From a virus (taxonomy: Duplodnaviria; Heunggongvirae; Uroviricota; Caudoviricetes): a stretch of DNA of 64,000 bases. The number at the start of each line of letters is the position of its first letter. Position 1 is the first letter of the stretch. Positions 6,163 through 42,765 of this stretch are shown here, piece after piece. Below the pieces are notes generated by a model. That model did no database searches, was not told where the DNA came from, and saw only the letters and a list, made by a program, of their open reading frames with translations. The stretch is from the IMG/VR virus record IMGVR_UViG_2883489344_000002; one strand, 5' to 3'. A program made the translations under genes and the position numbers.

Positions 6163-6556
6163 GGCCAGCGCAAAGATCTTGTGCCTGGAGCTGCCGGAGC
6201 TGCTGTTGTGCGGCCTCACTTTCGGCCTGGTAATGCTGGGCTTGCTGCTCATTTTCCTGGTTCTCCTGGTTTAATGCCTCGGTGCGCTGCGCATAGGCGT
6301 CACGCTGGGCGTCTGAAATGGCTTTGCTGGTGGCCAGCTGCTCTTTTTCGTTGGTCAGGGTGGTGATGCTGGTGCGCTGGTTGGCCAGCTGCTCGGCCTG
6401 CACCTGATTGACGTCCTTCAGGTCAGACACCCACAGCCAGCCCGCCACCAGCCCGGCCGCGATCGTCATGCCCATGCAAATCTCCACCTTGGCGCGGGTG
6501 GATAGGCCTGAAAGCAGGCTCCAGCTGGTTGAGAGGGCGGTAAACATGCTCATCAT
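6089..6556 (-). CDS. i-spanin (Rz-like)
   Basis: N-terminal TM segment (ICMGMTIAAGLVAGWLWV) followed by Q/E/A-rich coiled coil. 155 aa. It overlaps the lipoprotein ORF. Confidence 0.55.
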   Translation of the reverse strand: MMSMFTALSTSWSLLSGLSTRAKVEICMGMTIAAGLVAGWLWVSDLKDVNQVQAEQLANQRTSITTLTNEKEQLATSKAISDAQRDAYAQRTEALNQENQENEQQAQHYQAESEAAQQQLRQLQAQDLCAGHAVPAGVVRVQQQAVSDFNAQYQR

Positions 6557-7302
6557 GCACTTTCCTTGAGTAATGCCAGCACACTGGCAGGGGTGATCGC
6601 GCTAACGGCCTTTGCCACCGCCGCGCTGTTAATCGAGGCACCAATCAACGCCACAGAGATGGCATTGCTATATGCCTGCTGGGATGTAGTGATGCTGCTG
6701 CTTGCCGCGTCGTACTGGGTGGCCAACGTCTTTTGTGCGGCGGTAGCAGTGGCCATCTTCGCGGTGAAGCCCGTTACGGCAGTTTGGAGCGCAGCTACCT
6801 GGCTGGTAGAGAGCGCCGCCGGCACGGTAGCAGTGCCGCTGGCCAGCGTGGCATTGATGCTATCCATGGCGGACGATAGCGCGCTGATATCCAGGGCGGT
6901 GAGGGCGGCCACCAGCGCGCCGGGCGTGGCGGCATCACCGATCGCCGTGGAGATGGCCAGCTCACTGGCTTTTAGCCCGCTGGCGCGGCAGTGCACGTCC
7001 CAGCCCGTGGTGAGCTGGATAAGGGTCGAGGGGTCACTGTAGTTAGCCAATAGTGTTGCGTGGCTGGTGGCCTGGGTGGCCGTGCCCGCCAGCACCTTCG
7101 CCCAGCTGCTGATCTGCGCTACGTTGGCGTTGATGCTACTTGGGTAGGTCACGGTAGACAGCACCAGCCCAGAGAGCGTGGCACTGGCCTTAGTGGCCAA
7201 TTTGGCCGCCTGAGTGGATTGGGTGGCGCTGGCGGCCGTGGCCAGCCCGCCGGCGGTTTTGAGCGCCTGGTAGGCGGCAATTTGGGCAGGGGTAGAAAGC
7301 AT
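6553..7302 (-). CDS. Ala/Ser/Thr-rich low-complexity protein (249 aa), function unknown
   Basis: ORF in an operon between the PAAR-like gene and the spanins. Its composition is strongly A/S/T-biased. Confidence 0.4.
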   Translation of the reverse strand: MLSTPAQIAAYQALKTAGGLATAASATQSTQAAKLATKASATLSGLVLSTVTYPSSINANVAQISSWAKVLAGTATQATSHATLLANYSDPSTLIQLTTGWDVHCRASGLKASELAISTAIGDAATPGALVAALTALDISALSSAMDSINATLASGTATVPAALSTSQVAALQTAVTGFTAKMATATAAQKTLATQYDAASSSITTSQQAYSNAISVALIGASINSAAVAKAVSAITPASVLALLKESA

Positions 7303-7305
7303 AGG

Positions 7306-7590
7306 TTAACTCACTGACAGGAGCGGCTCGCCGCTGGTTACGGTGGAACCACAGGAAACCGGATCGCCCTCGCAGACCACGGCCTTGCCGCCTACGGTAA
7401 ACCAAGGGCGGGTAGACATGGCATTACCGGGGTGTGATGACGTTCCGTCTGTATGGGAGGGATAGGCGTTACCATCCACCAGCACTGCAACGCCATTGAC
7501 CGTGAAGAAATCCACGGCCTCGGCCGGCGGCCGGGAGGCAAACCCATCATGCCCAGAACACACGGAATTTTTTGTCGCTATGCCAGGCAT
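7306..7590 (-). CDS. PAAR-like spike-tip protein (94 aa)
   Basis: Contains GDPVSCGSTVTSG and VVCEG motifs consistent with the PAAR/DUF4150 zinc-binding cone. Confidence 0.45.
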   Translation of the reverse strand: MPGIATKNSVCSGHDGFASRPPAEAVDFFTVNGVAVLVDGNAYPSHTDGTSSHPGNAMSTRPWFTVGGKAVVCEGDPVSCGSTVTSGEPLLSVS

Positions 7591-8393
7591 TCGGCCGGCT
7601 CCAGCTCATGGGGCACCATATGCAGGCACTCATAGATTTCTGGCGTATCAGCGTAGCGCTCGCGCTGCTCGGCAAGGCAGGAGGTGGAGATGAGGGAGTT
7701 TCCTTTTTGGGATAACTGGATAGCTTTCACCTGGGGCTGCTGGCCAAGCCAGACCAGGGCGCTTGAGACCTTATAGCCCGCCACCACCAGCCGGCACTCT
7801 GGGGAGACAAGGTTATAGACCAGGCGGATAAAGTCCGGGTGATATTGGTGAGCGTCATCGATAATCACCGTGTTTACGCCTGGCAGCACCGATTCAAGGT
7901 ACTCGCGCGTGGCGTCCACCATCGGATCCCAGCACAGCCCCCACGTCAGCTTTTCATCCGTCGCCAGCACGTACTCTGTCCGCACAGAAAATAGGGCGTC
8001 CGCCAGGGCTAAGCCCGCGCCGGCATACCCATAGCGCAACATCTTGCGACACTTCAGCATGATGTCTTGGGTAGGGGAGATGACCATTACCACCTGATCA
8101 CGATTCATCACCAGGTCATGCAGTGCCACCATGGCACATGCTGTGGTCGCGCCTGTTTCTGGGGCGTGGAAGGCCAGAACATGGCGCTGGCTCTCCATGG
8201 CTGCCAATAAGCGCTGTTGCTGCCGGGTCATGCTCAATTCGGGGAGCACGTGGTTCGCAAAGTAGCGCAATGAGCGCTCTTCTGGCGTGAACTCGTCCAG
8301 CATGGCATAGCCCATATTGCGGACGCGGTTGCTTACCAGCTCGTTATGGTCAGGAAAAGTAATGCTCTCGAGAGTGGTTTTGAAGGAACCCAT
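7578..8393 (-). CDS. P-loop/DEAH-like NTPase-fold protein (271 aa)
   Basis: Degenerate Walker A (HAPETGATT) and a DEAH-like Walker B (VIIDDAHQY). First gene of the minus-strand operon. The promoter region at 8394-8560 is AT-rich. Confidence 0.4.
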   Translation of the reverse strand: MGSFKTTLESITFPDHNELVSNRVRNMGYAMLDEFTPEERSLRYFANHVLPELSMTRQQQRLLAAMESQRHVLAFHAPETGATTACAMVALHDLVMNRDQVVMVISPTQDIMLKCRKMLRYGYAGAGLALADALFSVRTEYVLATDEKLTWGLCWDPMVDATREYLESVLPGVNTVIIDDAHQYHPDFIRLVYNLVSPECRLVVAGYKVSSALVWLGQQPQVKAIQLSQKGNSLISTSCLAEQRERYADTPEIYECLHMVPHELEPAECLA

Positions 8394-8569
8394 AGACAGG
8401 CCTCATGATTAAAGGACTGCCAGCCTATGGAAAGTTGCATCTGCTTGTTAAACGTAATTGTTAAAATGAAAGCACAAAAAATGCGAATTAAGAATTTATT
8501 AATTGCTTACGGGATGCAACAAGCCAGAAAGGATCATAGACTCAGCCCTAAGAACGGGAGGTATAAATT

Positions 8570-8896
8570 ATGCGCAATTATATGTCTGCACTGACCGCTG
8601 AAGAGATCAGCCGCATCGCTGATCAAGCCGTAGCAGATGTTGCGAGTCAGAAACTTACGACGACGAAAAGTGCCGCTCCAGCAGCCTACGGAACCGCTCA
8701 CCGCGACCGTACTGCAATGGCTCATAATGTTAATGTACGTTATAGTATCTCTGATAAAAATGTGCACCTCAGCAAGGGTAACGATGGTATTACAGTTATC
8801 TATAGCAATGATTTACATGGGGTCTCGAGTAAATTATCAATGGCAACTGGTAGAGATCTTTTCCGCACCGCATTCAATTTAGCTCGTAAGGGTTAA
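8570..8896 (+). CDS. hypothetical protein (108 aa)
   Basis: Strong RBS GGGAGGT. Followed by a terminator. Confidence 0.5.
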   Translation: MRNYMSALTAEEISRIADQAVADVASQKLTTTKSAAPAAYGTAHRDRTAMAHNVNVRYSISDKNVHLSKGNDGITVIYSNDLHGVSSKLSMATGRDLFRTAFNLARKG

Positions 8897-8908
8897 AAAT
8901 ACTTAATC

Positions 8909-8937
8909 AATGCCCCTCTGATGGGGCATTTTATTTT
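8909..8937 (+). terminator. rho-independent terminator
   Basis: ATGCCCC-TCTGAT-GGGGCAT followed by TTTATTTTG. Confidence 0.65.
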
Positions 8938-8948
8938 GCCGGTGAGAC

Positions 8949-9617
8949 ATGAACCAGCCTAAAAAATGGGTTTTTACAGAGCTTGTCCAAGACGCTGATA
9001 ATCCAGAACAATTAATAGCTTATGCGATATATAAAGCGGATAAAGACGAACTGGCTAAGAAGTGCCGTCAAAGAAATAAAAGTGAAGATGATATTGGTAT
9101 CGAGTTAGAACGGTTTCATGATAATCTCGCGGATTCAGACCGGCGGCTAGCTGAATATAAACGCCGTGCAAATCAAGTAGTAGAAGGTTTGGTCAGGGGG
9201 GTGGACAGCAGGGTAAGAGCAGAACTTGAAGCGCGTGAAAATGCTCATATAAGACACTTGGAACAACAACTTATTTCAGTTCAGAATGAATTAACGAGAG
9301 CTGAAGAGACAGCCCTAAAAAAATGGACAGAACAGGCCCATAACTATAGCGCGCATCTTAATAAACCGCCAACTTGGAAAGCTGTAGCTAAATGGATCGG
9401 TCTGTGGCTAATTTCTGGAATACCTGGTTTGTTCGCAACGGTAATCACGACTATCATATTGGTTGGGCTTGTTTCCTTATTTACTACTAATGCACTTCAG
9501 TCAACTAAAGAAGCTCTAAAAGCTAGTCTGGATGTACTGATGGTAGATCATGGGGGAGTGCCGACAGGAAATATCAATGATTCTGACTCAGTATTAAATG
9601 AAAAAAAGAATCAATAA
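8949..9617 (+). CDS. membrane-anchored coiled-coil protein (222 aa)
   Basis: Cytoplasmic coiled-coil N-terminal part and a C-terminal TM segment (WIGLWLISGIPGLFATVITTIILVGLVSLF). Lower GC than the backbone. Confidence 0.5.
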   Translation: MNQPKKWVFTELVQDADNPEQLIAYAIYKADKDELAKKCRQRNKSEDDIGIELERFHDNLADSDRRLAEYKRRANQVVEGLVRGVDSRVRAELEARENAHIRHLEQQLISVQNELTRAEETALKKWTEQAHNYSAHLNKPPTWKAVAKWIGLWLISGIPGLFATVITTIILVGLVSLFTTNALQSTKEALKASLDVLMVDHGGVPTGNINDSDSVLNEKKNQ

Positions 9618-9632
9618 ATTCCAAACTATAAA

Positions 9633-9656
9633 GCCTCAAGTCGAGGGTTTTTTTAT
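9633..9656 (+). terminator. putative terminator
   Basis: CCTC-AAGT-CGAGG hairpin followed by TTTTTTT. Confidence 0.45.
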
Positions 9657-9722
9657 ACTTTCGGGGAATGACCTATCTTGACGTGTTGTTAATGCATAAA
9701 AAACTTACTAAGGTGAAATGCG

Positions 9723-10047
9723 ATGACCGATCATTTAAAAGCCATATATGAAATGACCCGGCGCTACAATAAATTAGGGGTAGTTTCTAATGAAGTTTTT
9801 GGTAGCATTGAGATAAGCATGAAGGCTCGTGAGCTTAAAGAAAAAATGCCTAATCTCCGTCCTATGGACGAAGAGCAAATCAAGGCCGTTCGAAACCGCT
9901 ACGGTATGTCTTAGTCTGCACTGGCTATTACAATCGGTATAACCGTTGAAAACGTATCAAAATGGGAACGCAATGAAGGCAAGCCTGGTGGTGCCGCATT
10001 ACGCATCCTTAACACGTTGGAGGCCAAAGGTTCCAGCGTTTTTGTAT
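9723..10047 (+). pseudogene. XRE-family HTH DNA-binding protein interrupted by an in-frame TAG at 9912-9914
   Basis: The N-terminal 63-aa ORF continues in the same frame after the TAG into a canonical HTH (SALAITIGITVENVSKWERNEGKPGGAALRIL). The combined product would be about 108 aa. Confidence 0.5.
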
Positions 10048-10147
10048 AGACAATTTAAGAGCGCGACAAATCAAAAAAATAAATCAGCACTTCGCCTATA
10101 AATAATTTATGTTATTTATGAGAGAGCTTGAGATAAAGAATTTGAGC

Positions 10148-11236
10148 CTAATTTTCAGAGGCTTCCTTATCGAAAAATAGATTTTTATATCTTGACAAAA
10201 TACCTGGTGGAGCCATTGATTTAATTATTTTAATATGGGGCAATATCGATAAGAAAATCTGCTGGCCTTCAGTGCTTTTAGCACCAATGTACTTTCTAAT
10301 AAATTCATTCTCATCTATGATCCCTATCAAGAACTTGTAAACTTCTTTTCTTTCAATCAATATTCCAGAATCAAATATTTCATCTAAAGTTCTTATTAAC
10401 TTGCGAAGCTGGTATTCAAGTGAAGCAAGTCTTTTCCCGTTAAATTCCATAATATCAGATGTTGATTTTCCATTGTTCACCCCGTTGATTTCTAATTTTT
10501 CCAAATAATCACGCTCTTGCTGGGTAAATAATTCTCGTAAAGATAAAAAGGATTCGTATGTTTCGTCGTCATTGTGTTGGCTTATTATATAATCTAGTAT
10601 GCGTACTGCCTTTTGGGATTTTACATAGACGGAACTAATTATCGCGGTCTGTGCATTGTACTCATTTTGCAATTGAGATATCTGCTCTTCAAGATTTTTT
10701 TTAGAATTGTTTAACTTATCAAGTTCATCTTTAGCGTTGTCTATTCCCATTCGCGCTAGCTCTTGTTTTTCTTTTTCTCGTTCAATTTTTGTGTTGTTTA
10801 TCTCAGCCTGAAGAGCAAGCGCTGCTTTTGCGGCCATATTTGAATGCTCATCGGCTACAGATGCATCTGCTTTTTTTTGAGACAAAAGTATTTGTTTGTC
10901 TAAAATATTACCTTCAGCTTCAATTTCTTTTTTTAACTTATGATTGGCCGCCCAAGTTTGCAACCAATCAATGCCCATTTGCAAGTATGGATATGCAATT
11001 GCTAATATCAAACCCCACAGTATCGGCTGAAAAAATCTTTGTGAGTAATAGCTGGGTTCATTTAAAATGGCAGCAATGCGCTGCTCAATGCTGCTTTTGC
11101 TCAATGCTAATATAAGAATCGCGTCCCAATTTTTTACTAAGAAACTCAAGGCAACAAAACCAAATATTGGGCTTGTAAGCCTATGCTTAACCGCTTCTTT
11201 GATTGATTCTTTAAGCTCTTCCATACGAACTCCCAC
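10148..11236 (-). CDS. AT-rich membrane-anchored coiled-coil protein (362 aa), possible exclusion/abortive-infection factor
   Basis: About 30-35% GC in a GC-rich genome. Two N-terminal TM segments, a long coiled coil, and a C-terminal domain with no recognisable motif. Confidence 0.5.
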   Translation of the reverse strand: MGVRMEELKESIKEAVKHRLTSPIFGFVALSFLVKNWDAILILALSKSSIEQRIAAILNEPSYYSQRFFQPILWGLILAIAYPYLQMGIDWLQTWAANHKLKKEIEAEGNILDKQILLSQKKADASVADEHSNMAAKAALALQAEINNTKIEREKEKQELARMGIDNAKDELDKLNNSKKNLEEQISQLQNEYNAQTAIISSVYVKSQKAVRILDYIISQHNDDETYESFLSLRELFTQQERDYLEKLEINGVNNGKSTSDIMEFNGKRLASLEYQLRKLIRTLDEIFDSGILIERKEVYKFLIGIIDENEFIRKYIGAKSTEGQQIFLSILPHIKIIKSMAPPGILSRYKNLFFDKEASEN

Positions 11237-11326
11237 AAATATTTCAAAATGCGGCCTTTACACCATTGCAGATGATCATGGGAGTTTACTACTTCTAAGA
11301 AAAAGAATCCTCTTTGCAAAAGTTTT

Positions 11327-12130
11327 TTATGATTTAGGGAACAGTCCCAATATAAAAGAGCGATAGTAATCCGACTCTTCCCTATGCTCTTCTTGTAGAC
11401 TCTCTAGTTGGCTACGATTAGCATTGGCCGCGTCCAGCGCAGACAGCCTAATCCGCTTTACCCCAGGTTCTTCACAGATCGCCCTAAATGCGCCCCCAGC
11501 ACTCACAGGGACGCCTGAAACAAGTAAGGGCTGCCCTGGCATCATCGCAGCCCTCAACGCCTCCAGAAAGCCATTGGTGCAGTGCTCAGCACCGTCCACG
11601 AAGACGAATGAGGTGCACCCCTTGAGAGAAGCCAATTTCGCCTCTGTGAACTCCTGGGGGTTGAGCCACTCAATACGGCGGGCTGGCGTGCAGTCAAGAT
11701 GCACGGCATGGGCGCTGAATGTCAGGTGTCGGGTCAGCACCGGGTAAAGCTGGGCTACCTGGATCAGGAGTGACTCGATGGTGCTCCAGGTACGCATATA
11801 GGGGGAAACAACATAGGCGCGGCCGTAGTAGCAGCACAGCATTGACCACACTGCCAGCGCTGCCGCCGGCGCGTGAATGGGCGCTCGCTCCCCATGGGTC
11901 ACGGCAATGTATTTTTCAGCGCTATACCCTGTGAGCCGCTCCATGGCTGGCATGATGTCGGCCGGGAACGTGAGGCGCATCTCTTGGCAAAAAGCAGGGA
12001 AGGGCTGCACAAGCATCGCATCCAGGTTGCCTATGTTGAAAGTGGCGAACTCCGCCCGGGCGCGCTCATGCTGTGCGGTGATGCCAGGCTTGAACATGGG
12101 GATCGTAGTGTTGAGACTATGGCTTGGCAT
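11327..12130 (-). CDS. hypothetical protein (267 aa) downstream of the methyltransferase
   Basis: ORF with a possible Walker-B-like FVFVDGAE segment. Function unknown. Confidence 0.45.
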   Translation of the reverse strand: MPSHSLNTTIPMFKPGITAQHERARAEFATFNIGNLDAMLVQPFPAFCQEMRLTFPADIMPAMERLTGYSAEKYIAVTHGERAPIHAPAAALAVWSMLCCYYGRAYVVSPYMRTWSTIESLLIQVAQLYPVLTRHLTFSAHAVHLDCTPARRIEWLNPQEFTEAKLASLKGCTSFVFVDGAEHCTNGFLEALRAAMMPGQPLLVSGVPVSAGGAFRAICEEPGVKRIRLSALDAANANRSQLESLQEEHREESDYYRSFILGLFPKS

Positions 12131-12171: not shown

Positions 12172-14238
12172 TTAGAGGATGGCAATGATGTCGTGGACGC
12201 TGCCGCGTGTATCGCTGGCGCAGCTAATGGCGCGCCGTGCCACCAGCCCGCGCAGGGTGAAGCCCCGCGCTAGGTAGAGAGACATCACTTTTGGGGCGCT
12301 GCTATTGGTGATCACCACGCGCGCGCCGCGCCCGTGCGCCGCCAAAAGGTGATCGACCAGGGTTACCTGATCCTCATACGTGAAGCCATGCTCAGTGTAG
12401 GAGGTGAAGTTGCCTTCGCCTGGCATTGGCTCATAGGGCGGATCGCAAAAAATGACATCCCCCGCGCCGGCCTGGGCTATCGTCTCCTGGAAAGGCGCAC
12501 AGATAAACTCTCGCCGCGCACTGCTTCCAACAAAGTGATCCAGCTCCGCCGCCGGGAAGTAGCTTCCGGCCTTTTTGTTCCAGCCCACGTTAAACATCCC
12601 TTTGCGGTTATAGCGGCTCAGGCCATTAAAGCAGGTGCGGTTAAGCGCCAGGAACAGCGCCGCGTGGCGCGCCGGATTGGCCAGCCGCGCGTTAAACTCC
12701 TCACGCAGGGCAAGATAGGCCTCGTTGCTATCGCAGTCTGCCACTAACTTAGACGCGGCCGGGATAATGGCTCCTGGATAGTCAGACAGATGCTGGTAGA
12801 GGTTGATAAGGTCTGGGTTGATGTCAGCCAGCAGGCAGCGCTCAAAGCCGGCATTCATAAAGACCGAACCTGCTCCCACAAAAGGCTCTACCAGCCGCTG
12901 GCCAGTGCCCAGGGCGGGCAGCAGCGCGTCAAGGACGGAATATTTCCCACCCGCCCATTTCAGGAAGGGGCGCACCCGTACTGCACCCTCAATTGAGGGC
13001 GCGGCAGGCTGCATCACAGCGTTACTCACATTTTCCAAAATTCGTTGTCCTATCCAGTGCATAACAGGCACCGCCATGGAGTTACCCACTGCTTTGTAGC
13101 GGGGCGCATCAGGGCAGCTCTCGGCGGGCTTGCCTTTGAAGGGGATCATGGAGTGTCCATCAGGGAAGCCTTGCAACCTCTCACATTCCACGGGTCGAAG
13201 CCGGCGCACATGCTGACTGATCAGCGCGTGGGCTTTGTTGGAGCCGCCGCTGCCCGTACTTAAACAGTTGGCCACCTCCTCACCCAGCTCGGCAGTGGTG
13301 CCGCCCTCGCGGCCGCGCATCGATACCGCGCGGACAGGCATCACGGCGTGTACGTCTGTTCGGGTCAGGGTATGGCTTACCTCGGGCTTGTCGATCCCTA
13401 ATTGGTTTCCGCCGTTGCGTCCGGTACGGTTAATGACGTTGCCGGCAATGCTATAGGATGGGGCGTTATCCCATTCAATAGCGCTGCCTTCAGCTCCGGT
13501 GGCAACGGTCGCCCCCGGGACTCGGCTCGGCGGACTATCGAGGCGCAGGCTGTCGAACTCAAATAATACTTCTGCGGGATCGAGGTCTTCTCTAGCACTT
13601 GCGACAACAAACACACGGCGGCGGCGTTGTGCCACTCCGAAGTATTGGGCATCGAGGGTGCGCCAGGCGATCCGGCGCTGCTGGCCATAAACACAACCCG
13701 AGAGTGGCCACTTTGGAATGTGATCACCGGCGGGCTTGCTCCAGCGCCAGTAGGCGGTGCTCTTTCCTGGCTCAGGTTGCTCACCAGGTGTAAGCGGTTG
13801 AGCTTCTCCAGCCAAGCCGGCCAGGAAGCAGCCGAAGGCGTTGCTGCCATCGGAGAGGACGCCTGGGACGTTCTCCCAGACGATAACGGCGGGGGGCTTT
13901 CCAGCGGCGGCGCGCTGGTGGTCGATTTCATTGGCTAACTCCACGTATTTCAGGGTTAGCTGTCCGCGCTCATCCTCCAGGCCAGTACCCAGCCCGGCCA
14001 CCGAGAAGGCCTGGCAGGGCGTACCGCCCACCAGCAGGTCTGGCGCGGGAACGTTTCCGGCCTGCACCCGGCCGGCGATGGTGGTCATATCGCCCAGGTT
14101 GGGGACATCTGGCCAGTGGTGAGCCAGAACAGCGGAGGGGAAGGGGTCAATCTCAGAAAACCACGCCGCCCGGAAGCCCAGCGGCTCCCAGGCGACGGAT
14201 GCAGCTTCAATGCCGCTGCATACCGAGCCGTAGATCAT
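12172..14238 (-). CDS. bifunctional DNA methyltransferase: N-terminal C5-cytosine MTase fused to a C-terminal Dam-like N6-adenine MTase (688 aa)
   Basis: C5 motifs are present: CSGIEA (motif I), GGTPCQAFSVAG (motif IV), ENV, and RLQGFPD. The C-terminal half has Dam motifs PFLKWAGGK and DPPY. This matches the P1 Dmt concept. Confidence 0.75.
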   Translation of the reverse strand: MIYGSVCSGIEAASVAWEPLGFRAAWFSEIDPFPSAVLAHHWPDVPNLGDMTTIAGRVQAGNVPAPDLLVGGTPCQAFSVAGLGTGLEDERGQLTLKYVELANEIDHQRAAAGKPPAVIVWENVPGVLSDGSNAFGCFLAGLAGEAQPLTPGEQPEPGKSTAYWRWSKPAGDHIPKWPLSGCVYGQQRRIAWRTLDAQYFGVAQRRRRVFVVASAREDLDPAEVLFEFDSLRLDSPPSRVPGATVATGAEGSAIEWDNAPSYSIAGNVINRTGRNGGNQLGIDKPEVSHTLTRTDVHAVMPVRAVSMRGREGGTTAELGEEVANCLSTGSGGSNKAHALISQHVRRLRPVECERLQGFPDGHSMIPFKGKPAESCPDAPRYKAVGNSMAVPVMHWIGQRILENVSNAVMQPAAPSIEGAVRVRPFLKWAGGKYSVLDALLPALGTGQRLVEPFVGAGSVFMNAGFERCLLADINPDLINLYQHLSDYPGAIIPAASKLVADCDSNEAYLALREEFNARLANPARHAALFLALNRTCFNGLSRYNRKGMFNVGWNKKAGSYFPAAELDHFVGSSARREFICAPFQETIAQAGAGDVIFCDPPYEPMPGEGNFTSYTEHGFTYEDQVTLVDHLLAAHGRGARVVITNSSAPKVMSLYLARGFTLRGLVARRAISCASDTRGSVHDIIAIL

Positions 14239-21486: not shown

Positions 21487-22127
21487 AGGTAGTTCCCCTT
21501 GCCCGTCAGCGGGCTGTAAGAGGCCTGCTCGATAGATTGGCGCTCAAAGGCGCTGACGATAGTCCGCAGGGGATTAAGCGGCGAGGCTGGCTCCTGGGCG
21601 CGTGTGAAGCCCAGCATCTTTTCCAGGTATTGGACGCTGGCCACGTTGTTAAAAGTGGTGGCAAAGGTGCACAGCATGGTAAGGCTGTGCTCACCGCGCA
21701 GCTGTTCCCAGTCGATACGGTAAATGGTTGACCCTTTCGCATCCCGCGCCACGTCTACCAGGGTGTCAGGAATGTTGAAGCGCCCGCCGGCATTGCGGGG
21801 GAAGGTGATTGCTTTCTGGCGCACCAGCTCGCGGTAGATGTCCAGGGCTTCCACCAGCACCGGCTTGCCGCTGGCACCTGCATCCCCCAGGCGCACCCGC
21901 ACCCCGGCGCGCGCGGTGATGAAGTCGCTGGACTCATCCACCAGCACCTCAAAACCCTTCTGCTCCAAGTCGTGGATTGTCTCAATCAGCTGCTGCTCGA
22001 GCTGGTGGCGGTTATCAGGCAGCTTGATGGCATCAGCAATGAACAGCTCTCCATCCTTCCAAGCGGCTTTAGCCAGCATTGGGGGGCTGGTGGTCAGGCA
22101 GATGGCACAGATTTTTTTGTTGATCAT
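21483..22127 (-). CDS. hypothetical protein (214 aa)
   Basis: ORF coupled to the gpX-like gene. Confidence 0.45.
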   Translation of the reverse strand: MINKKICAICLTTSPPMLAKAAWKDGELFIADAIKLPDNRHQLEQQLIETIHDLEQKGFEVLVDESSDFITARAGVRVRLGDAGASGKPVLVEALDIYRELVRQKAITFPRNAGGRFNIPDTLVDVARDAKGSTIYRIDWEQLRGEHSLTMLCTFATTFNNVASVQYLEKMLGFTRAQEPASPLNPLRTIVSAFERQSIEQASYSPLTGKGNYL

Positions 22128-22442
22128 GCAGGGTATCCCGTGGCGCGCCCGCCTGGATTGGCGAACAGGCTGAAGAATACAGTTACTTACATTTGCCTGG
22201 GCATCGAAAATGGGATAGTTATTGCTTTCACAGTGAGGTAAGAGCAGATAAATAGGCTCCGCTTGTAATACTTAAATTACTTGCACTTAGGCTGCTTCGT
22301 ACAGGTCTCAATCAGCATTGACCAGGTGCGCTTTGTGCTAGAGGCGTATGCTGGTGCATTATGGCACGTTAATTACAGTGCTGGGCAAGAAAATACGGTT
22401 AGAAAAAGGCCGCTAATGCGGCCATATTGCGCAGAGAGTTAG

Positions 22443-23615
22443 CTATTGATATTGGGAGAGATAATCTGCAACTCCGTTCGCTGGATTTATCCCGCCAGTA
22501 TAGACTGTTCCTAGCTCTTGAGGCGTAACGGAGGTTGTAGGCCATATAACCATACCTTCAAAATAACTATCTATTTTAATTCTTTGAAGCTCTTTGAAAA
22601 GGTGGTCTTCTAATTCATTTTTTTTTAAGCAATTAACATAATAAGCGGCTGCACTTGCTACTATGTCTACAATCTGTAGTTGAGGATATTCTTGAGATGA
22701 ATGGAATGTTAAAGATCGAGCTTTGATTGGTAACTCAAAGGTTCTTCTGTCATAGCCATACACCTCTGTAATCCTTGACAAGTCCATAAATTTATTAAAT
22801 AAGTCTTGTTTCTCTACAATCGCTTTGGAATCGTCATGCTTGATATAAAAACCGCTGGGGTATGTTTTACCCCACTCTATACAGTGATTGAAGAGGCTGG
22901 GTATGGAAGGGTCTAATGTATTTTTTTCAACATTTTCTAATATATCATTAATTTCGCTTTTGGTAATGCTAATTCTATCTATTGTAGATTTGAATCTTTT
23001 GTCCTTAGAGCAAGCCTTTAGTTCATCAACTGATTCGTAAAATTCAGCAATAGACTCAGAGGATTGAATCCTAATCATGTTCATGAACTTCTGGTACATT
23101 TTATCTGTTTCTTCCTCTCCACACAAAGCAGGGAGGCAATAATAGTAAACATTAGACAGAGCAAGGTTGTGTCCATCTTTATAAAGATCCCACCCTCTAT
23201 TAAAACACCATGTTTCGATTAGAATATCAACAATCTTTGTTGTTAACATGTATTTTTTGTCGATTAAACAGATTTTAACATTCTCTTTATTGATATATTT
23301 ACTTTCAAGGAGCCTAATGATTCCATCCTGACCTGATTTCCTACGTTTAAGAGTTTTAAAGTGAGCTTCTATAGGGGATTTACTTCCTGTCAGCTCTAAT
23401 GCTTTGAGCGCATCTTGTTTATTAATGCTGCTTGAGCTTAAAGTGAAACAAGGTTGCGTTGGGTCAAGCAAGTTCCCGCCGGTATTTCCTGATTCATCAA
23501 AAAATATATCAGGCTTTATATGCATCATTTTATTTTTCTTTGCGGTCAGCTCTCTTTTATTTTCGTTACTCTTCTTTATTTTGTTTGCGCGCCGAAGTTG
23601 GCTATTTGCACCCAT
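22443..23615 (-). CDS. AT-rich DUF3800-like protein (390 aa; alternative start at 23528)
   Basis: Low GC. DUF3800-type N-terminal FFDESGNTG motif and C-terminal QIVDIVASAAAY motif. K-rich N-terminal extension. GAGGT SD at the long start. Confidence 0.55.
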   Translation of the reverse strand: MGANSQLRRANKIKKSNENKRELTAKKNKMMHIKPDIFFDESGNTGGNLLDPTQPCFTLSSSSINKQDALKALELTGSKSPIEAHFKTLKRRKSGQDGIIRLLESKYINKENVKICLIDKKYMLTTKIVDILIETWCFNRGWDLYKDGHNLALSNVYYYCLPALCGEEETDKMYQKFMNMIRIQSSESIAEFYESVDELKACSKDKRFKSTIDRISITKSEINDILENVEKNTLDPSIPSLFNHCIEWGKTYPSGFYIKHDDSKAIVEKQDLFNKFMDLSRITEVYGYDRRTFELPIKARSLTFHSSQEYPQLQIVDIVASAAAYYVNCLKKNELEDHLFKELQRIKIDSYFEGMVIWPTTSVTPQELGTVYTGGINPANGVADYLSQYQ

Positions 23616-23873
23616 AAATACCTCTAGAATGATCTGAAAAAAGGCGTTCTACTTTATTGCAAGATTATAATACCACTTAATATAGGTTGGGTTATATAAT
23701 TAATGTCAAGTTTGACTCACTATTTCTTGATAAGGCAATAATAATAAGGAGGCCTGCTCCCAGCGGCCTGCCATGCCTGCTTAAGAAACAAGCTTAGGCT
23801 AGAATACTCTCCGTTTTCCAAGCGAACCCTGTAATAAGTGCCATGGCATCGGCCAGCAAGGCAAGAGGACTAT

Positions 23874-24329
23874 ATGAAGCAACACCACAAAATCAGCCAG
23901 GCAGATATAGCCGCACAGGATGAAGCCCGCAGGATTATCAGCTTTGCGGAGACACTGCTGATGAAAGTACAAAGGCACCCTGGCCGCGTCGCATCGGCCT
24001 ATGTCCCCGATCTACAGGCCTATGAAATCTATCTCAGGATGAAGGATGGCACCGCTCAGCTACATGGACTTGATGTACTCGTTGTGGCAAACATATCAGC
24101 GGCAAAGCCCGGTACGGGCGGATTCACGCTGTTGCTCCACCAGCTCAAAACGTATGCCGAGCAGCGTAGATGGGTGCTGAAAGTCGAAAATGTTTTGGAC
24201 GCGCGTTTCCGGGCATTTTTGGAGAAGGAAGGGTTTGTTTTCCCTGATGTAGGGATGCACTACCACGGCTCAGGATACTGGGCAGCGAAGGGAGTGATGT
24301 CTACAGAGGAGCTGGTGGCATTAAGATAG
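23874..24329 (+). CDS. GNAT-family N-acetyltransferase (putative)
   Basis: AGAGGA SD. The KPGTGGFTLLL segment resembles the acetyl-CoA-binding Q/RxxGxG/A region. About 150 aa. Confidence 0.45.
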   Translation: MKQHHKISQADIAAQDEARRIISFAETLLMKVQRHPGRVASAYVPDLQAYEIYLRMKDGTAQLHGLDVLVVANISAAKPGTGGFTLLLHQLKTYAEQRRWVLKVENVLDARFRAFLEKEGFVFPDVGMHYHGSGYWAAKGVMSTEELVALR

Positions 24330-24495
24330 CGTGAGCTGGTGAAGAGAACCGCCCAGAAGGGCGGTTTAGGTAAAACGCATTAAAGATCAGCGAACTATTC
24401 AGCAGGAACCAATATAGTTATTACGCATCGGGGCGCATGATAGGGCAGGCGGCTGACCAGTGCAAATTGAGTATGTTGGTCAGCTGTCGGCCACA

Positions 24496-24906
24496 TTAGA
24501 GATAGTCTCCTTCGTAACCATCCATCAGATCCTCCCGGTAGTTGGAAAGCAGGCGCAGCGCATAAGCTGTCTCCTGAACGGTTGCATCACTTTCAGCAGC
24601 GAGAACGGTTGTCTTTACCAGGTGATAGGATGCATCCAACTCAAAGCCATTCATCATCAGGAATATCGATGCGGCCTGAAAGGCTGTGCGTTTATTCGCA
24701 TCATTGAAGGCATGAGCCTTTGCAATGCCCACCAGGTACATGGCTGCCAAGCTAAACACATCATCGCAATTTTCATAATGGTGAAGAGTTTGCACTCGAT
24801 TAAGTGCTCCTTCGAGCCTATCTAGGTTTGGCGTACCACTGTTAGGCAAAGTTACTCTCTGAAGGTTAATGACCTGTTCCGTAGTCAGGAAAATGATCTC
24901 CATCAT
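24496..24906 (-). CDS. doc: Doc (death-on-curing) toxin, Fic fold
   Basis: HAFNDANKRTA matches the Doc variant of the Fic motif. 136 aa. A 4-nt overlap with the upstream phd-like gene. Confidence 0.8.
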   Translation of the reverse strand: MMEIIFLTTEQVINLQRVTLPNSGTPNLDRLEGALNRVQTLHHYENCDDVFSLAAMYLVGIAKAHAFNDANKRTAFQAASIFLMMNGFELDASYHLVKTTVLAAESDATVQETAYALRLLSNYREDLMDGYEGDYL

Positions 24907-25280
24907 TTATCTTCCAGAGCCTTAATTATTTTTGCGTGTTTCTTGCGTGTTTTTTCAATCGCTTCATCAAAAGAAAGCGATCTACCCGGAGGTAAAATTG
25001 ATCTGTGCGGGTGCGCTAAATCTTCGACCTTTTTAACGGACTCAGTTAGATGCTTAGGTAAGCCCATAGGATCCCAAGTAGTGGCGTTTCCAGCGTAGAT
25101 GTCAGCCCTATCATCAGACTTATTCATAAAACCTAATACACCCACGCCACCAGCAGCTCGGGCACTCAGCAAGATGTCAGGTTTACCGCGTTGGGTGACT
25201 ATGATTTGCTCGCCGTTGCGTAATGCTTCAAGTACATCTGCAAGCTCATCGCGCATACGTGTATAGCTAATATTTTTCAT
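24903..25280 (-). CDS. phd: Phd/YefM-family antitoxin (125 aa, with C-terminal extension)
   Basis: N-terminus MKNISYTRMRDELADVLEALRNGEQIIVTQRGKPDILL matches the Phd/YefM consensus. Confidence 0.75.
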   Translation of the reverse strand: MKNISYTRMRDELADVLEALRNGEQIIVTQRGKPDILLSARAAGGVGVLGFMNKSDDRADIYAGNATTWDPMGLPKHLTESVKKVEDLAHPHRSILPPGRSLSFDEAIEKTRKKHAKIIKALEDK

Positions 25281-25445
25281 AGCAAGCTCCTAGATATGTA
25301 CATGTACAGGTTAGCGCTAGGATGAAGGATTAGCAAGCATGCTGAAGTTAAAAAGCCGAAAGTGGAAAATCCTCAAGTGTTCCTTTTAAGAATGTTCCTA
25401 ATAAATTATAATGTTTACGATTTTTTACATATTTAAGGATGGTGT

Positions 25446-25931
25446 ATGGCTAGTTATGTCGATTCAAATCTTTCTAAAGGTGAAGAGGTAATCACCCGCG
25501 CCCATGTATCTTGGCTTTCCTTCTTATTCGTAATAGTAATTGGTACAGTGTGTTTGCTGATAGGGCTGTTAGGAGCACTTATTCGTGGGAGCGGTGGCGG
25601 CGACATTCCTGGCATTTCGTGGTTTTTCATTTTAGTGGGGGCATTTCTCCTTCTTAAGGTCACCCTGATCATCGTAACTACAGAGCTTGCATTAACAAAT
25701 AAGCGCGTCATCGCTAAATTTGGCTTTATCCGCAGAACTACTGTTGAACTACGCCTTGATAAAGTCGAAAGTTTAGAGGTAAATCAAGGAATTATGGGGC
25801 GCTTGCTCGGGTATGGGAATATTGTTGTTAAAGGAACTGGCGGCACAGGCACCCCAATTCCATCTATCAAAAAACCCTTAGACTTTAGACGAATCGTTAA
25901 CAATTACATTGAAGAAAGAGAAGCAGTTTAA
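25446..25931 (+). CDS. membrane protein with bacterial PH (bPH_2/DUF304-like) domain
   Basis: Two TM segments followed by a YdbT-like PH-domain pattern. Low GC. A terminator follows at 25948-25979. Confidence 0.45.
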   Translation: MASYVDSNLSKGEEVITRAHVSWLSFLFVIVIGTVCLLIGLLGALIRGSGGGDIPGISWFFILVGAFLLLKVTLIIVTTELALTNKRVIAKFGFIRRTTVELRLDKVESLEVNQGIMGRLLGYGNIVVKGTGGTGTPIPSIKKPLDFRRIVNNYIEEREAV

Positions 25932-25947
25932 GATTTGATAGCGTTTA

Positions 25948-25979
25948 GAAGGCCATCTTTAAAGGGTGGCCTTTTTTAT
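25948..25979 (+). terminator. rho-independent terminator
   Basis: AAGGCCATC-TTTAAAG-GGTGGCCTT followed by TTTTTATTT. Confidence 0.55.
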
Positions 25980-26262
25980 TTCATTTGAAAATGATAATTG
26001 GCAAGCGCCAGAAAAGGGAAGAGCCGCCCGGGGGCAGCTCTTGTTCATCAAGGTAAGTTGAATCTTAACTGAAATCGATAACGACGGTCATGTGAATGCC
26101 AGGGCACTTTAATGAACCCAGGCACCAAAAACAATACGTGATGCTCGGTCAGGCGGCTTTTTTTTCGGGTGGTGGAGTGGCAGTTTTTTGTTTACTGACG
26201 TGCCAGAAAAGCTTTCTGCGGCGATTACTTAGGCGATTTTTGTTCATAAAATAAAATGCATT

Positions 26263-30956: not shown

Positions 30957-32036
30957 TCAGCGAAACATACGCAACATGATGCTGTTATCTGCCTCCAAAT
31001 GTCTGATGTAGCCCATAACCTGCTTAGGCGTCTTCCAGGTGCCCTCATGCATAATCTGGGGAAGGGATGCACCACTTTTGGCCATGTCCTGCGCCGCCCC
31101 TACGCGGGGGCTGTGCCCAGTCCACGTGCGATAGCGCTTGGTAGACTTTCCGTCCTGGGTGCCATAGAGCGCTGACCAAGCATCAGAGAAAATCTTCTCA
31201 ATTGCACGGTGAGTAAGGGGATTTTTGGTTTGACGGAGTTTGTTGTAGCGGTCAACACCGCAAAAAACAAAGGCGTCAGGCTGATCGGCCAGGCCAGACA
31301 TTTCGAGCCAGTTGACCAGCCACTCAGTGACGATTGGAGCCAATTTCTTAATGACGCCGTACCCATCGATGATGGTTTTGGTGTGCTTGACTAGCAGAAT
31401 AGCGGTGCCGTCAGGGGAGAACGTCACATCACGAACACGTAAGCGGGAGATCTCCGCAATGCGCAGCAGAGTAATGTAGGAGATACCGATGAAAGCCAGA
31501 TTCCGGCGTTGGTAAAGGCGGGTATTGGACTCCCACGCGGCAGCTACCTTGAGCAATTCCTCTCGGTGCAGCGGAATAGCCTGGCCGATCATCTCACCTT
31601 TTAGGACAGACGTTCTGCGGATTTTACGCATCCCACGATCAACGGAGCGCACGTCATCAGGGCGCAGCAAGCCGGCCTCGGCGTGAATTTTGTTAATCAT
31701 GGTCTTGTGCTGTGCCACTGTGGAGGTGGCACGGCCAAGCTCCTCTTTCAAATAGAAGAGGTAATCACGCACATCATCATAGTCAGCGGGGAGCCACACT
31801 TTGCCGCGCTCGTCACACCAGCGCGCCCAGCTCCGCAATACCGAGAGCATCTGATCCCAGGTATTTTTGGCAAACGCATCCTTGTCGGCTAAGAACCGGC
31901 GAAGATGATCGGCTACCCGCTCATCGAAACTTGCCGCGTTTAATGAAGGAAGGTCACGTGGATTCACCTTCTTCGGAGTCATTTTCGTCATCGATTTTCC
32001 TATGTCGTTTGCAGATTTTGTAATCTGGATGCTCAT
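30957..32036 (-). CDS. cre: Cre-like tyrosine site-specific recombinase
   Basis: Collinear similarity to P1 Cre, including AFxxxTW, VRDYLxYL, NLAFxGIxYxTLLRIAEIxRxRVxDx, GHSxRVGAAxDMAxxGxSxPxIMxxGxW and MxYIR with the catalytic Tyr. The start codon is uncertain (32036, 31991 or 31982). Confidence 0.75.
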   Translation of the reverse strand: MSIQITKSANDIGKSMTKMTPKKVNPRDLPSLNAASFDERVADHLRRFLADKDAFAKNTWDQMLSVLRSWARWCDERGKVWLPADYDDVRDYLFYLKEELGRATSTVAQHKTMINKIHAEAGLLRPDDVRSVDRGMRKIRRTSVLKGEMIGQAIPLHREELLKVAAAWESNTRLYQRRNLAFIGISYITLLRIAEISRLRVRDVTFSPDGTAILLVKHTKTIIDGYGVIKKLAPIVTEWLVNWLEMSGLADQPDAFVFCGVDRYNKLRQTKNPLTHRAIEKIFSDAWSALYGTQDGKSTKRYRTWTGHSPRVGAAQDMAKSGASLPQIMHEGTWKTPKQVMGYIRHLEADNSIMLRMFR

Positions 32037-32283
32037 CTTTCAGGAGCAACCCGATTTCTTCAGCCGTAAACGGCCGCTTAGCGTTTCTATCGTGCAATTG
32101 AAGGTCCGGGTGCATATCCGCAAGGAGAAGAAGGAACTCAAACTCACTAGAGGCCATAGGCCGATGGTCATGTTCCTTCTTTATCCAGCCGCCAACGGAG
32201 TAGCCAAATCGTTCGGCCATCTCTGCTTGCGTCTTGCCTAGCTTTATGCGGGCTGCCTTAACCATTTTACCGGTCGGTTGCAT
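31954..32283 (-). CDS. XRE-family HTH regulator upstream of cre (109 aa)
   Basis: Canonical HTH LGKTQAEMAERFGYSVGGWIK. It overlaps the annotated cre 5' end. Confidence 0.5.
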   Translation of the reverse strand: MQPTGKMVKAARIKLGKTQAEMAERFGYSVGGWIKKEHDHRPMASSEFEFLLLLADMHPDLQLHDRNAKRPFTAEEIGLLLKDEHPDYKICKRHRKIDDENDSEEGEST

Positions 32284-32659
32284 AAAAATGCTCCTGCAAC
32301 TATCCCGCCCGGGATAGTGATTTTATAGTGGTCTGGGTTAAATACAACGCTAATCCCAAAATTAACTGGTAAACCGGTTTATGAGCGTGGGACTAACGTT
32401 TGGTGCTTCTACGCTAAAAATGCACAGGGATTACCCACAATCTGATTAATTTTTCACGTAACGCTACCAAGTCTGATCTTCAAGTTATGGCTCATGCTGA
32501 TAGCTAAAAACGCCTGCATATACGACGAGATTGGGATGAGATGTCGCTCTGAGTATCGGTTTCATAGTGTGCCAACCCCTAAAGTTAAAAGCCTGCTAAT
32601 TTCGTAAGGAAAACGTCACAGGACTGAAACGGCTTTGCTAAACCGTAAAGTACCAAATG

Positions 32660-32699
32660 TTGTCAGGTATATATATGGGTAGTTATATATACCTGACAA
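32660..32699. promoter_or_regulatory. lox-like recombination site: 16-bp perfect inverted repeats flanking an 8-bp asymmetric spacer
   Basis: TTGTCAGGTATATATA-TGGGTAGT-TATATATACCTGACAA. Same architecture as loxP (13-8-13). It lies in a roughly 650-bp non-coding region upstream of cre. Confidence 0.6.
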
Positions 32700-32942
32700 T
32701 TTTGTAAGGGGGTAAGCATATTCGATTTATTGTTATCTCACCAGAGACCTATTCCGTTAAGTTATTATTACCATGATCAATATCACCAATGGTATCAGTT
32801 CCATAATTGTCGAAAAAGCCCGCAATTCAGCACTATTTTCAGTTTCTGATACCGGTAACCTTCCCCGTCACAATGGGCTAGTGGTATATAGGGATTGTCC
32901 GAAAACGATAGTGGATTGGAAATTTTTTGCAGGGTTAGAGCA

Positions 32943-33155
32943 ATGACACGTAACACCATTTTACCTTTAGTGAATGACATTACATTAGCCGCCAAAGAGC
33001 TTGGGCTTGTAACCTTGGCAACACCTGCCAATATGGAAATCATCGTGCAACACTTCGCTATGACGCTCTCAACCCCCGCTCCTGGCACAAAACGTGTCTC
33101 CATCAAAGAACTCCGCCGATACTTAAAGCAAACCATTTACTACTGTATTTTGTGA
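32943..33155 (+). CDS. Coi-like small protein (70 aa) upstream of c1
   Basis: The size and position match P1 coi. Its start overlaps an ATTGCTCTAA C1-operator-like half-site on the minus strand. Confidence 0.35.
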   Translation: MTRNTILPLVNDITLAAKELGLVTLATPANMEIIVQHFAMTLSTPAPGTKRVSIKELRRYLKQTIYYCIL

Positions 33156-33318
33156 CCCAGTTGTTCATAGAGTGCTCGTGTCCCACATATAGGACAAGTT
33201 TGTCCAGTTATGAGACATTTTTGTCCGGGTATTGTGTAACGGCTAGTAGACCTATACTAAAATAATGTTTATTTTAAGCTGTCGGCGCTATGCCGGCCTT
33301 GAAAGAGACATTTTGTTG

Positions 33319-41677: not shown

Positions 41678-42007
41678 TTAGCTCACCAGCTTCAAATCCT
41701 GCTTGCGGTGCTTCTTATGGTCATCATAGAAATTCTCATGAGTTCCAATAGACAGCAAATACAGCTCAAGCTTTCCTTCTAACCAAGAATAGCCCAAAAG
41801 ATACAGCTCTTTTTCGAGAGAGAATTTGTGAACACGCAAAAATTTGAGATCCCCTTTTTTCTGTTCGCCAATCAAGGGATCGGCAATAACGCGTTCAATT
41901 TCATCTTCTACAATACGCAGTTGCTTGCCGCTCAGTTTAGACAATGCTTTTTCAAAGCGACGAGTTTCGTAAACATCAACCTTGTTTACGCTCTGTTCTC
42001 CGGACAT
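41678..42007 (-). CDS. RelE/ParE-superfamily toxin
   Basis: The C-terminal region LKFLRVHKF...YLLGY...LELYLLSIGTHENFY fits the RelE/ParE fold consensus. The start is taken at MSGEQSV. Confidence 0.55.
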   Translation of the reverse strand: MSGEQSVNKVDVYETRRFEKALSKLSGKQLRIVEDEIERVIADPLIGEQKKGDLKFLRVHKFSLEKELYLLGYSWLEGKLELYLLSIGTHENFYDDHKKHRKQDLKLVS

Positions 42008-42212
42008 ATTTCTTGACCCTTCCATTCTCAACTTCACTTTTAGCTAGTAAGGCTTCGAGAATGAAGGAATACGGCAGATCAGGGTTGTCTTCGGCAATCC
42101 TACCTATTTTAGCCCAATGCTCAATCTGCTTTGGTACGCTGCGGCTTGAAACCTCAGCATACACTTTCACATCATCCACAAAGTCCTCATCAAGACGGAC
42201 ACTAATAGCCAT
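41976..42212 (-). CDS. ParD/RelB-type RHH antitoxin
   Basis: MAISVRLDEDFVDDVKVYAEVSSRSVPKQIEHWAKIG matches the ParD antitoxin pattern. 78 aa. Upstream of and overlapping the toxin. Confidence 0.6.
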   Translation of the reverse strand: MAISVRLDEDFVDDVKVYAEVSSRSVPKQIEHWAKIGRIAEDNPDLPYSFILEALLAKSEVENGRVKKYVRRTERKQG

Positions 42213-42760: not shown

Positions 42761-42765
42761 AATGA

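Follow-up and report, generated by a model that had tools for sequence, protein, structure and literature searches.

Among the described systems closest to the locus reported here are two hotspots of P2-like prophages, namely the old/tin locus between P2 gpA and gpQ, which is a defence hotspot (Rousset et al. 2022, PMC9122126), and a hotspot in the tail region (Moura de Sousa et al. 2026, PMC13586616). At the level of single proteins, a functional selection in E. coli yielded a membrane-anchored defence protein that has a coiled coil (DUF4041) at its centre and a C-terminal nuclease domain (Vassallo et al. 2022, PMC9519451). Here we analyzed a 64,000-nucleotide (nt) stretch, called the window in the following, of the Caudoviricetes virus record IMGVR_UViG_2883489344_000002 from IMG/VR, and in particular its island of low guanine-plus-cytosine (GC) content at positions 8394-11326. 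This island is very probably a stack of two independent cassettes, (a) and (b), together with a decayed toxin-antitoxin (TA) pair, carried as the cargo of a recombination hotspot that lies downstream of dmt, where it is bounded by f267 and f271, two conserved genes of the backbone.

The island, already recognized in the first-pass annotation, has a GC content of 0.386, as compared to 0.571-0.612 in the flanking genes and a window mean of 0.530 (standard deviation 0.053 in 2.9-kb windows). The values for cassettes (a) and (b) are 0.413 and 0.366, respectively, and GC at third codon positions is 0.31-0.43 in the island genes and 0.65-0.71 in the flanks. Just one further stretch of about 3 kb, near 60 kb, is comparably low within the 64 kb. 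The deviant GC (0.39 against 0.57-0.61) is combined with presence/absence polymorphism between conserved flanking genes, as in morons and other hotspot cargo. While the window carries both cassettes, L014, a 47-kb contig, has (a) alone, a divergent (a) is present in L015, a 96-kb Pantoea plasmid, and (b) alone was present in the donor of an island in L002, an 89.5-kb metagenomic contig. The earlier suspicion of a variable accessory hotspot was thus well founded: the content varies among related elements and is absent from P1, P7 and D6. Features of this kind are familiar: temperate elements have hotspots in which low-GC cargo is stacked, with the debris of toxin-antitoxin genes beside it.

No direct or inverted repeats marking a transposon or integrase site were found flanking the island, and Rfam gave a single chance match (U6atac, E 0.29) in 8200-11500. 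Promoter-like matches numbered 8, against 8.6 expected from shuffled sequence. The hairpins at 8909-8940 and 9634-9660 are terminator-like.

Two cassettes and a toxin-antitoxin relic

Cassette (a), at approximately 8446-9660, is a conserved two-gene operon, in which the gene for a soluble protein of about 100 amino acids (aa) is followed by a terminator-like hairpin and the gene for a predicted tail-anchored inner-membrane protein of about 220 aa. Cassette (b), at approximately 9661-11326, is inserted between the terminator of cassette (a) and the stop codon of f267. The features of the island are as follows:

8394..11326, no strand: low-GC hotspot cargo, marked by its GC contrast and by content that varies in L014, L015 and the L002 donor
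8570..8896, plus strand: gene 1 of cassette (a), small soluble partner of 108 aa (alternative start 8582), with a homologue upstream of the 222-family gene
8909..8940, plus strand: GC-rich hairpin between the two genes, followed by a T-run, terminator-like; from a terminator scan, and present in 10/10 contexts folded
8949..9617, plus strand: gene 2 of cassette (a), tail-anchored membrane protein of 222 aa (phrog_25194, 1e-44; 27 database clusters; 42 plasmids)
9634..9660, plus strand: hairpin and T7 run closing cassette (a), at the same position in L014 with another stem sequence
9677..9727, plus strand: 3' remnant of a RelE-type (PF06296) toxin gene, its last 17 codons (tblastn with the L002 toxin: residues 113-129, 53% identity)
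9723..10049, plus strand: amber-interrupted antitoxin pseudogene of the helix-turn-helix (HTH) type, 108 aa when read through, with a full-length alignment to the L002 protein
9912..9914, plus strand: in-frame TAG replacing Gln64 (CAA in L002), from the comparison of window and L002
10148..11224, minus strand: membrane protein of cassette (b), 358 aa, with two transmembrane (TM) segments in its N-terminal domain, then a long coiled coil, and a C-terminal domain made of helices, from homologues and an AlphaFold2 (AF2) model

The open reading frame (ORF) of 108 aa on the plus strand (8570-8896) is present as first described. It had been taken as incidental, and turned out to be the real partner of the 222-aa gene, immediately upstream of it. 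A homologue in this position was found at 12 loci by phmmer and additionally at L022 by jackhmmer, which recovered 9/9 of the sequences tested for the small partner. Conserved parts are an N-terminal helix, LTAEEIRxIAxxAVADVAxQKITT, and a C-terminal GRGYFKDAFNKARKG motif, with a variable and probably disordered middle. The protein lacks hydrophobic segments and matches phrog_34496 (7e-7), a PHROGs family without assigned function. Genes 1 and 2 are in every case separated by 52-63 nt, which include a GC-rich hairpin with a conserved CCCC/GGGG core, then a T-run and, next in order, a ribosome-binding site of the GGTG type. Hairpin and T-run were found at the equivalent site in all ten contexts folded, with compensatory changes at one stem pair.

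In the 222-aa protein, the strongest hydrophobic segment spans residues 160-178, and a weaker one residues 145-163. The C-terminal TM anchor attributed to it earlier was thus retained. The model has one long helix (residues 64-137, i.e. 74 residues), not an extensive coiled coil, and the C-terminal TM segment. Strong conservation is found in the N-terminal 80 residues or so, KKWVFTELV..LIAYAMYKADKDD. The family corresponds to phrog_25194 (1e-44), again without assigned function in PHROGs, and all database names are "hypothetical protein".

Besides the window, 222-family genes were found at 14 loci in 11 distinct contexts. The gene order of L014, i.e. RdgC, Dmt, f267 homologue, hotspot, f271 homologue and PAAR protein, matches that of the window, and its hotspot holds homologues of the 108-aa and 222-aa genes alone. 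DNA homology between the two starts at window position 8419 and stops at the terminator, near 9660, and the synonymous sites of cassette (a) are saturated in this comparison. In L015, the same hotspot contains a 160-aa gene and a gene for a 197-aa tail-anchored protein. The latter matches the 222-aa protein at 1e-13, while the 160-aa partner has a mere trace of the C-terminal motif of the small partner. Among the plasmids in PLSDB, 42 carry a 222-family gene, including IncY P1/P7-like plasmids of E. coli (e.g. pHYEC7-mcr1), where it is found in the variable region close to dmt. Prophage contexts include L019 (P2/186-like), with cassette (a) between gpA and the portal gene gpQ, i.e. at the old/tin locus, and L010 (Klebsiella, P2-like), with the cassette after the P2-type tail-fibre genes. 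Furthermore, cassette (a) adjoins the gene for a 1270-aa SIR2_2 protein in L018 (6891-10703) and those for SEFIR/TIR_2 and HEPN_AbiV proteins in L026 (2051-4951); these two neighbourhoods are candidate defence islands in metagenomic contigs. A Rosenbergiella Rep3 plasmid has it as well, and one cluster of the membrane gene occurs in at least 1000 Salmonella contigs. When the 222-aa protein and one of its enterobacterial homologues were compared by tblastn with 50,697 phage records, P1, P7 and D6 among them, no match was obtained, and complete E. coli genomes likewise gave none in a blastn search with the Klebsiella cassette.

The large gene on the minus strand was annotated as 10148-11236 and 362 aa. 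Its most likely start is the ATG at 11224, preceded by GGGAG, which gives 358 aa and equals the database entry; the N-terminal TM segments and the coiled coil of the earlier description stand, the length probably does not. Hydrophobic segments are located at residues 23-41 and 67-85 of the annotated protein. The AF2 model (mean predicted local distance difference test score 84) has a membrane hairpin, a single helix at 59-215 and a helical C-terminal domain. By an exhaustive HMMER search, 642 representatives of the family were found, matching mainly the N-terminal 190-250 residues or so. The invariant positions P19, N32-W33, P67 and P79 are situated in the two hydrophobic segments, with the coiled coil following. 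A match to phrog_4780 (2e-13) adds another PHROGs family without assigned function. The ratio of nonsynonymous to synonymous substitution rates (dN/dS) against L002 is 0.14 overall, with 0.06 for the TM domain, 0.09 for the coiled coil and 0.20 for the C-terminal domain; from these values, the gene is functional and under purifying selection, its C-terminus changing fastest.

The 358-aa family normally travels as a solo moron, being found alone in eight contexts. In seven IMG/VR viral contigs, the homologue is a solo low-GC insert of about 1 kb without an HTH or RelE neighbour, inserted between portal/scaffold and capsid genes, between terminase and portal genes, or beside an integrase gene. 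A Pantoea vagans plasmid has a solo copy adjoining ArdA, a methyltransferase gene and umuC. In the phage collection, the 358-aa protein has a weak match to D6 orf73 alone. In the islands of D6 and D6-like plasmids, the family member (orfX) ends the series HigB-HigA-HTH-orfX, and its C-terminus varies between plasmids. The D6 HTH protein has no homology to the HTH protein of the window. Between L001 (phage D6, 7534-8684) and L025 (3518-4720), the HTH regulator gene and the 358-family gene are different alleles, while HigB and HigA are unchanged, which hints that regulator and membrane gene are swapped as a pair in these plasmids.

In L002, a contig whose GC is about 66% and whose other genes are of an ordinary chromosomal kind, P0002 (80% identical to the 358-aa protein) is encoded convergently with an intact 108-aa HTH_3 gene, which in turn is overlapped by 8 nt by an intact 129-aa toxin gene (Pfam PF06296, RelE, at 2e-22). 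The DNA homology to the window (81%, window 9678-11368) spans the last 14 or so codons of f267, the 358-aa gene, the HTH gene and 17 codons at the 3' end of the toxin gene. A second match of 71 nt (window 8374-8443, L002 12021-11951, 82%, E 1e-12) covers the f271 start and its upstream region, at the other edge of the L002 island. Accordingly, f267 is represented in L002 by a remnant of its last 14 or so codons (YYRLFVMGLFPKS*), and f271 by its first 20 nt or so and the upstream region. The region 9855-12021 of L002 is a low-GC island of 2.2 kb, with an intact relE/HTH/358-aa cassette bounded by f267 3' and f271 5' remnants. Since such remnants flank both sides, the donor hotspot held cassette (b) alone, with a working TA pair, and the hotspot cargo therefore moved with pieces of its flanks.

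In the window, residues 113-129 of the L002 toxin are its sole match by tblastn. The amber-interrupted HTH gene of the first-pass annotation was confirmed, with the in-frame TAG at 9912-9914. When the stop is read as Q, the product matches PF01381 (HTH_3) at 3.6e-7, with MqsA-family and NadS models below their cut-offs, and the 108-aa protein of L002 at 6e-57 (phmmer). The window thus contains neither the intact toxin nor the intact antitoxin of a PF06296/HTH module. With the toxin cut to 17 codons and the antitoxin interrupted at Gln64, the HTH gene is best seen as a relic and not as a regulator of the membrane proteins; contrary to the regulatory role assigned to it before, it is an antitoxin gene whose RelE (PF06296) partner was deleted.

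The two membrane proteins had been proposed to form one two-component module. Their families were never found together in the 11 distinct contexts of the 222 family or the 11 loci of the 358 family, and never within about 6 kb of each other outside the window, so that their pairing is unsupported. A three-gene unit of relE, HTH and the 358-aa gene was also considered and rejected, as it occurs in one lineage alone (window and L002), while eight other contexts lack TA or HTH genes.

Possible functions and competing explanations

A defence or exclusion role had been suggested for the membrane proteins jointly. It is plausible for cassette (a), given the P2 gpA-gpQ site and the SIR2, TIR and AbiV neighbours, and was abandoned for a joint module. 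The distribution of cassette (a) is the one expected of a phage-exclusion system. An anti-phage defence function is accordingly a tentative assignment for cassette (a), and a more doubtful one for the 358-aa protein of cassette (b). The whole account, with composite cargo, TA relic and defence roles, is on balance the explanation that we favor.

In the proposed mechanism, cassette (a) would be a prophage-borne phage-exclusion system with the membrane protein as its effector. The conserved intercistronic terminator suggests that this protein is scarce, as in toxin/antitoxin-like abortive systems; it would keep the effector scarce relative to the small partner, which could act as its sensor or inhibitor. 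Upon infection, the effector would act at the inner membrane, either by killing the cell (abortive infection) or by blocking entry (superinfection exclusion). The 358-aa protein may serve a similar purpose on its own, as a membrane moron that needs a single gene, and is composed of a conserved membrane module and a stalk, and its faster-evolving C-terminal domain could possibly be involved in target recognition. In its most far-reaching and rather unlikely form, this would make cassette (a) a new, widespread two-gene anti-phage system of Enterobacterales, present in P1-like plasmids, P2-like prophages and defence islands, in which a terminator meters a tail-anchored effector against a largely disordered partner; the 358-aa family would then represent another exclusion family, independent of the first, made up of single-gene membrane proteins whose C-terminal sensor can be swapped.

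Several observations weigh against this account. Searches with the intact proteins of both cassettes against Pfam, PDB profiles and three fold libraries gave coiled-coil noise at most, with no match to a solved or a viral predicted fold, and NCBIfam had nothing for the membrane proteins. In PADLOC-DB v2.0.0, the window proteins matched nothing better than the coiled-coil parts of ZorA and JetC, with an E value of 1e-3 at best, so that the comparison with known defence families called for earlier gave no significant family match. With 51 proteins of the 358 family, 26 of the 222 family and four small partners, PADLOC likewise returned scattered weak coiled-coil matches (LmuB, JetC, LeoA). Hardly any charge bias is seen around the TM segments. 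Two of the cassette (a) contexts are bare chromosomal islets without defence neighbours. Furthermore, the P2 gpA-gpQ hotspot also holds partition systems and a cytolethal distending toxin (PMC9122126), and location alone is therefore weak evidence for defence. As for the relic, an error in sequencing could account for the amber codon, and in D6 and D6-like plasmids an HTH regulator gene directly precedes the 358-family gene, so that HTH control of this family is possible in some elements.

The main rival explanation, which we consider possible though somewhat doubtful, is that the membrane proteins are accessory without being defensive, and serve in lysis timing or the envelope, in plasmid-prophage maintenance, or in lysogenic conversion. 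It would account for the lack of defence-family matches, for the non-defence cargo of the same hotspots (PMC9122126) and for the chromosomal islets that carry cassette (a) without phage context; in the IncY P1/P7-like plasmids, moreover, the cassette follows a baseplate gene on the same strand and could be expressed late. What it explains less well is that cassette (a) repeatedly occupies both of the classical positions of P2 exclusion genes and also adjoins SIR2, TIR and AbiV genes, as well as its absence from P1, P7 and D6, which indicates that it is dispensable for the phage life cycle. This absence also bears on the possibility raised earlier that the genes are core genes of P1-like phages. 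They are not core: the 222-aa protein has no match in the 50,697 phage records, and the protein annotated as 362 aa matches D6 orf73 weakly.

It is improbable that the HTH gene is functional, whether by an erroneous TAG, by read-through or by an active 63-aa fragment, and acts either as an orphan antitoxin, with an anti-addiction effect on RelE modules that come in, or as a repressor. Conservation is still good in the codons downstream of the stop (dN/dS against L002 of 0.29 for codons 65-108, with few sites, and 0.135 for codons 1-63), and the mutation is thus recent or not real. As the codons following the TAG are still conserved, we regard the nonsense change as recent. The cognate toxin gene is deleted, however, and the stop removes the HTH domain (residues 53-94). 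A suppressor is also missing from the window, since ARAGORN found no tRNA gene in the whole 64 kb, and the flanking proteins have consecutive RefSeq numbers (WP_137765832 and WP_137765833), as would fit the absence of an annotated protein in between. P1 itself presumably has tRNA genes near dmt.

A single regulated abortive-infection or exclusion module, in which both membrane proteins and the HTH gene are under joint control that their convergent orientation would reflect, is very improbable. All three genes do lie within 3 kb of low-GC DNA, and 358-family genes are found beside HTH genes in D6-like plasmids too, although the D6 regulator is not homologous to the HTH protein of the window. 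The two membrane families do not co-occur in the other loci examined, and the 358 family is solo in eight contexts. The two halves of the island have separate DNA homologues, one ending at 9660 and the other beginning at 9678, and the HTH gene is translationally coupled to the RelE toxin gene in L002 and interrupted here.

That the whole island is decaying junk DNA without current selection, as one pseudogene and one 17-codon stump might indicate, is equally improbable, with three other ORFs intact, a dN/dS of 0.14 for the 358-aa gene, and a cassette (a) in which neither of the ORFs, nor the intercistronic hairpin, nor the terminator has been lost in distant hosts.

Composite cargo with two independent cassettes therefore remains our preferred reading. 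Cassette (a) is conserved, unnamed, recurrent in loci used for defence-system discovery and absent from PADLOC, which makes it a cheap candidate for cloning and testing. The analysis also defines the 358-aa family as a large unannotated family of membrane/coiled-coil morons, and L002 is a clear example of hotspot cargo exchanged with short pieces of the anchor genes, even into a chromosome of 66% GC.

Backbone anchors and other low-GC regions

The island had been placed between the tail/lysis operon and the methyltransferase operon. Its direct neighbours are instead f271 and f267, both on the minus strand and downstream of dmt. Together with an element upstream of f271, they are:

7578..8393, minus strand: f271, backbone anchor gene of 271 aa, role not assigned, flanking the same hotspot in L014 and L015
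8419..8445, minus strand: element CCAGyyTATGGAAAGTTGCATCTG (about 24 nt), upstream of the f271 start and conserved in four contexts
11327..12130, minus strand: f267, backbone anchor gene of 267 aa, role not assigned, with homologues following dmt in L014, L015 and L016/L017

The element carrying these genes belongs to a clade of phage-plasmids that resemble P1 distantly. This clade is small, with members from Nissabacter and Pantoea and relatives from metagenomes. At the DNA level, the backbone has a single match in P1 and P7, namely dmt, a fused Dcm-Dam gene at 12172-14238. The P1-like backbone described earlier is thus upheld as a distant relationship, while a close DNA relation is not, dmt alone matching P1.

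Homologues of f271 were found at the same hotspot in L014 (3e-43) and in the Pantoea plasmid L015 (4e-40). No relatives of f271 were found in the genome and viral collections, and a word-indexed protein search for f267 relatives gave one, on a 4-kb contig. Neither gene has a homologue in the phage collection, and each has one in PLSDB (the Pantoea plasmid). Similarities to P-loop, DEAD or terminase-like proteins were weak for both (E 1e-3 to 1e-2). The two are clade-specific backbone genes; the idea that they are paralogues was dropped at an E value of 1.3 between them.

The element at 8419-8445 is kept in the window, L014, L002 and the Pantoea plasmid L015 despite diverged surroundings, about 30-50 nt before the f271 start, and belongs to the backbone rather than to the cargo. 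It may control the f271-PAAR operon as a promoter or operator, or else serve as an anchor for recombination. A repeated late-promoter motif was rejected, as it has a single copy in the window. Downstream of f271 are genes for a 94-aa PAAR-motif protein (7306-7590; phrog_281, 8e-25; Pfam PAAR at 5.5e-5, which misses the cut-off) and for a protein of 249 aa rich in Ala, Ser and Thr (6553-7302; phrog_1559, 2e-54), and the order of these three genes recurs in L014.

A second low-GC region of the window, at 22000-26000, contains a Phd-like antitoxin gene (24903-25280, below the Pfam cut-off) and a Fic/Doc gene (24496-24906), resembling the P1 phd-doc module, as well as genes for a DUF3800 protein (22443-23615) and a bacterial PH-domain protein (25446-25931). 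The lowest GC of the window (about 0.34-0.37) is found at 60730-62757, where the product of another orphan cargo gene, 675 aa in length, has no match in Pfam or PADLOC. There are also short dips at about 32000-33000 and 42000-43000, to 0.43 and 0.40, respectively. One ORF near each dip (33265-34197 and 43055-43462) was compared with Pfam and PADLOC, with no match.

Comparison with known systems

PF06296 RelE toxins paired with antitoxins that have a C-terminal HTH form a type to which we take Vibrio cholerae HigB2/HigA2 to belong. The L002 pair fits this type, with a 129-aa toxin, an 8-nt overlap and a 108-aa antitoxin with HTH_3 in its C-terminal half, while the window copy differs as a relic with a 17-codon toxin and a stop-interrupted antitoxin.

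The closest relative of cassette (b) in a described phage is the orf70-orf73 island of D6 (HigB, HigA, HTH regulator and orf73), situated between tail genes 7 and 25. Its orf73 is a distant member of the 358-aa family (phmmer 1e-6), likewise in a low-GC island of a P1-related phage-plasmid and beside a TA pair. The D6 island differs from that of the window in its genome location, in having co-oriented genes, in the TA family (PF05015 HigB) and in an unrelated HTH regulator; the N-terminal membrane domain and the stalk are the sole parts that orf73 shares with the 358-aa protein.

The DUF4041 protein resembles the 358-aa protein in being the product of a single gene with a membrane anchor, a long coiled coil and a C-terminal domain. 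However, the C-terminal domain of the 358-aa protein is a small helical bundle with no recognizable fold, and Pfam detected no DUF4041 or nuclease domain in the window protein or in 51 members of its family. The likeness is an analogy of shape and not one of membership.

For cassette (a), ToxIN and RexAB offer partial parallels, as two-gene exclusion or abortive systems in which the first product outnumbers a toxic second one. In ToxIN, toxI and toxN are separated by a terminator, and lambda RexA/RexB includes a membrane effector. Similarly, the terminator-like hairpin before the membrane-protein gene 2 would give an excess of the gene 1 product, although there is no sequence relation, and gene 1 of cassette (a) encodes a protein and not an RNA.

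The P2 hotspots provide the broadest comparison. The cassettes of the window have no sequence relation to old, tin or catalogued systems, and they are carried by a P1-like plasmid-prophage, between other anchor genes and downstream of dmt. Like the island, however, the P2 cargo consists of short cassettes of deviant GC between conserved anchors, which are swapped among relatives and also occur in other mobile elements and at cryptic chromosomal sites, and cassette (a) itself occupies the P2-type positions at gpA-gpQ (L019) and after the tail-fibre genes (L010).

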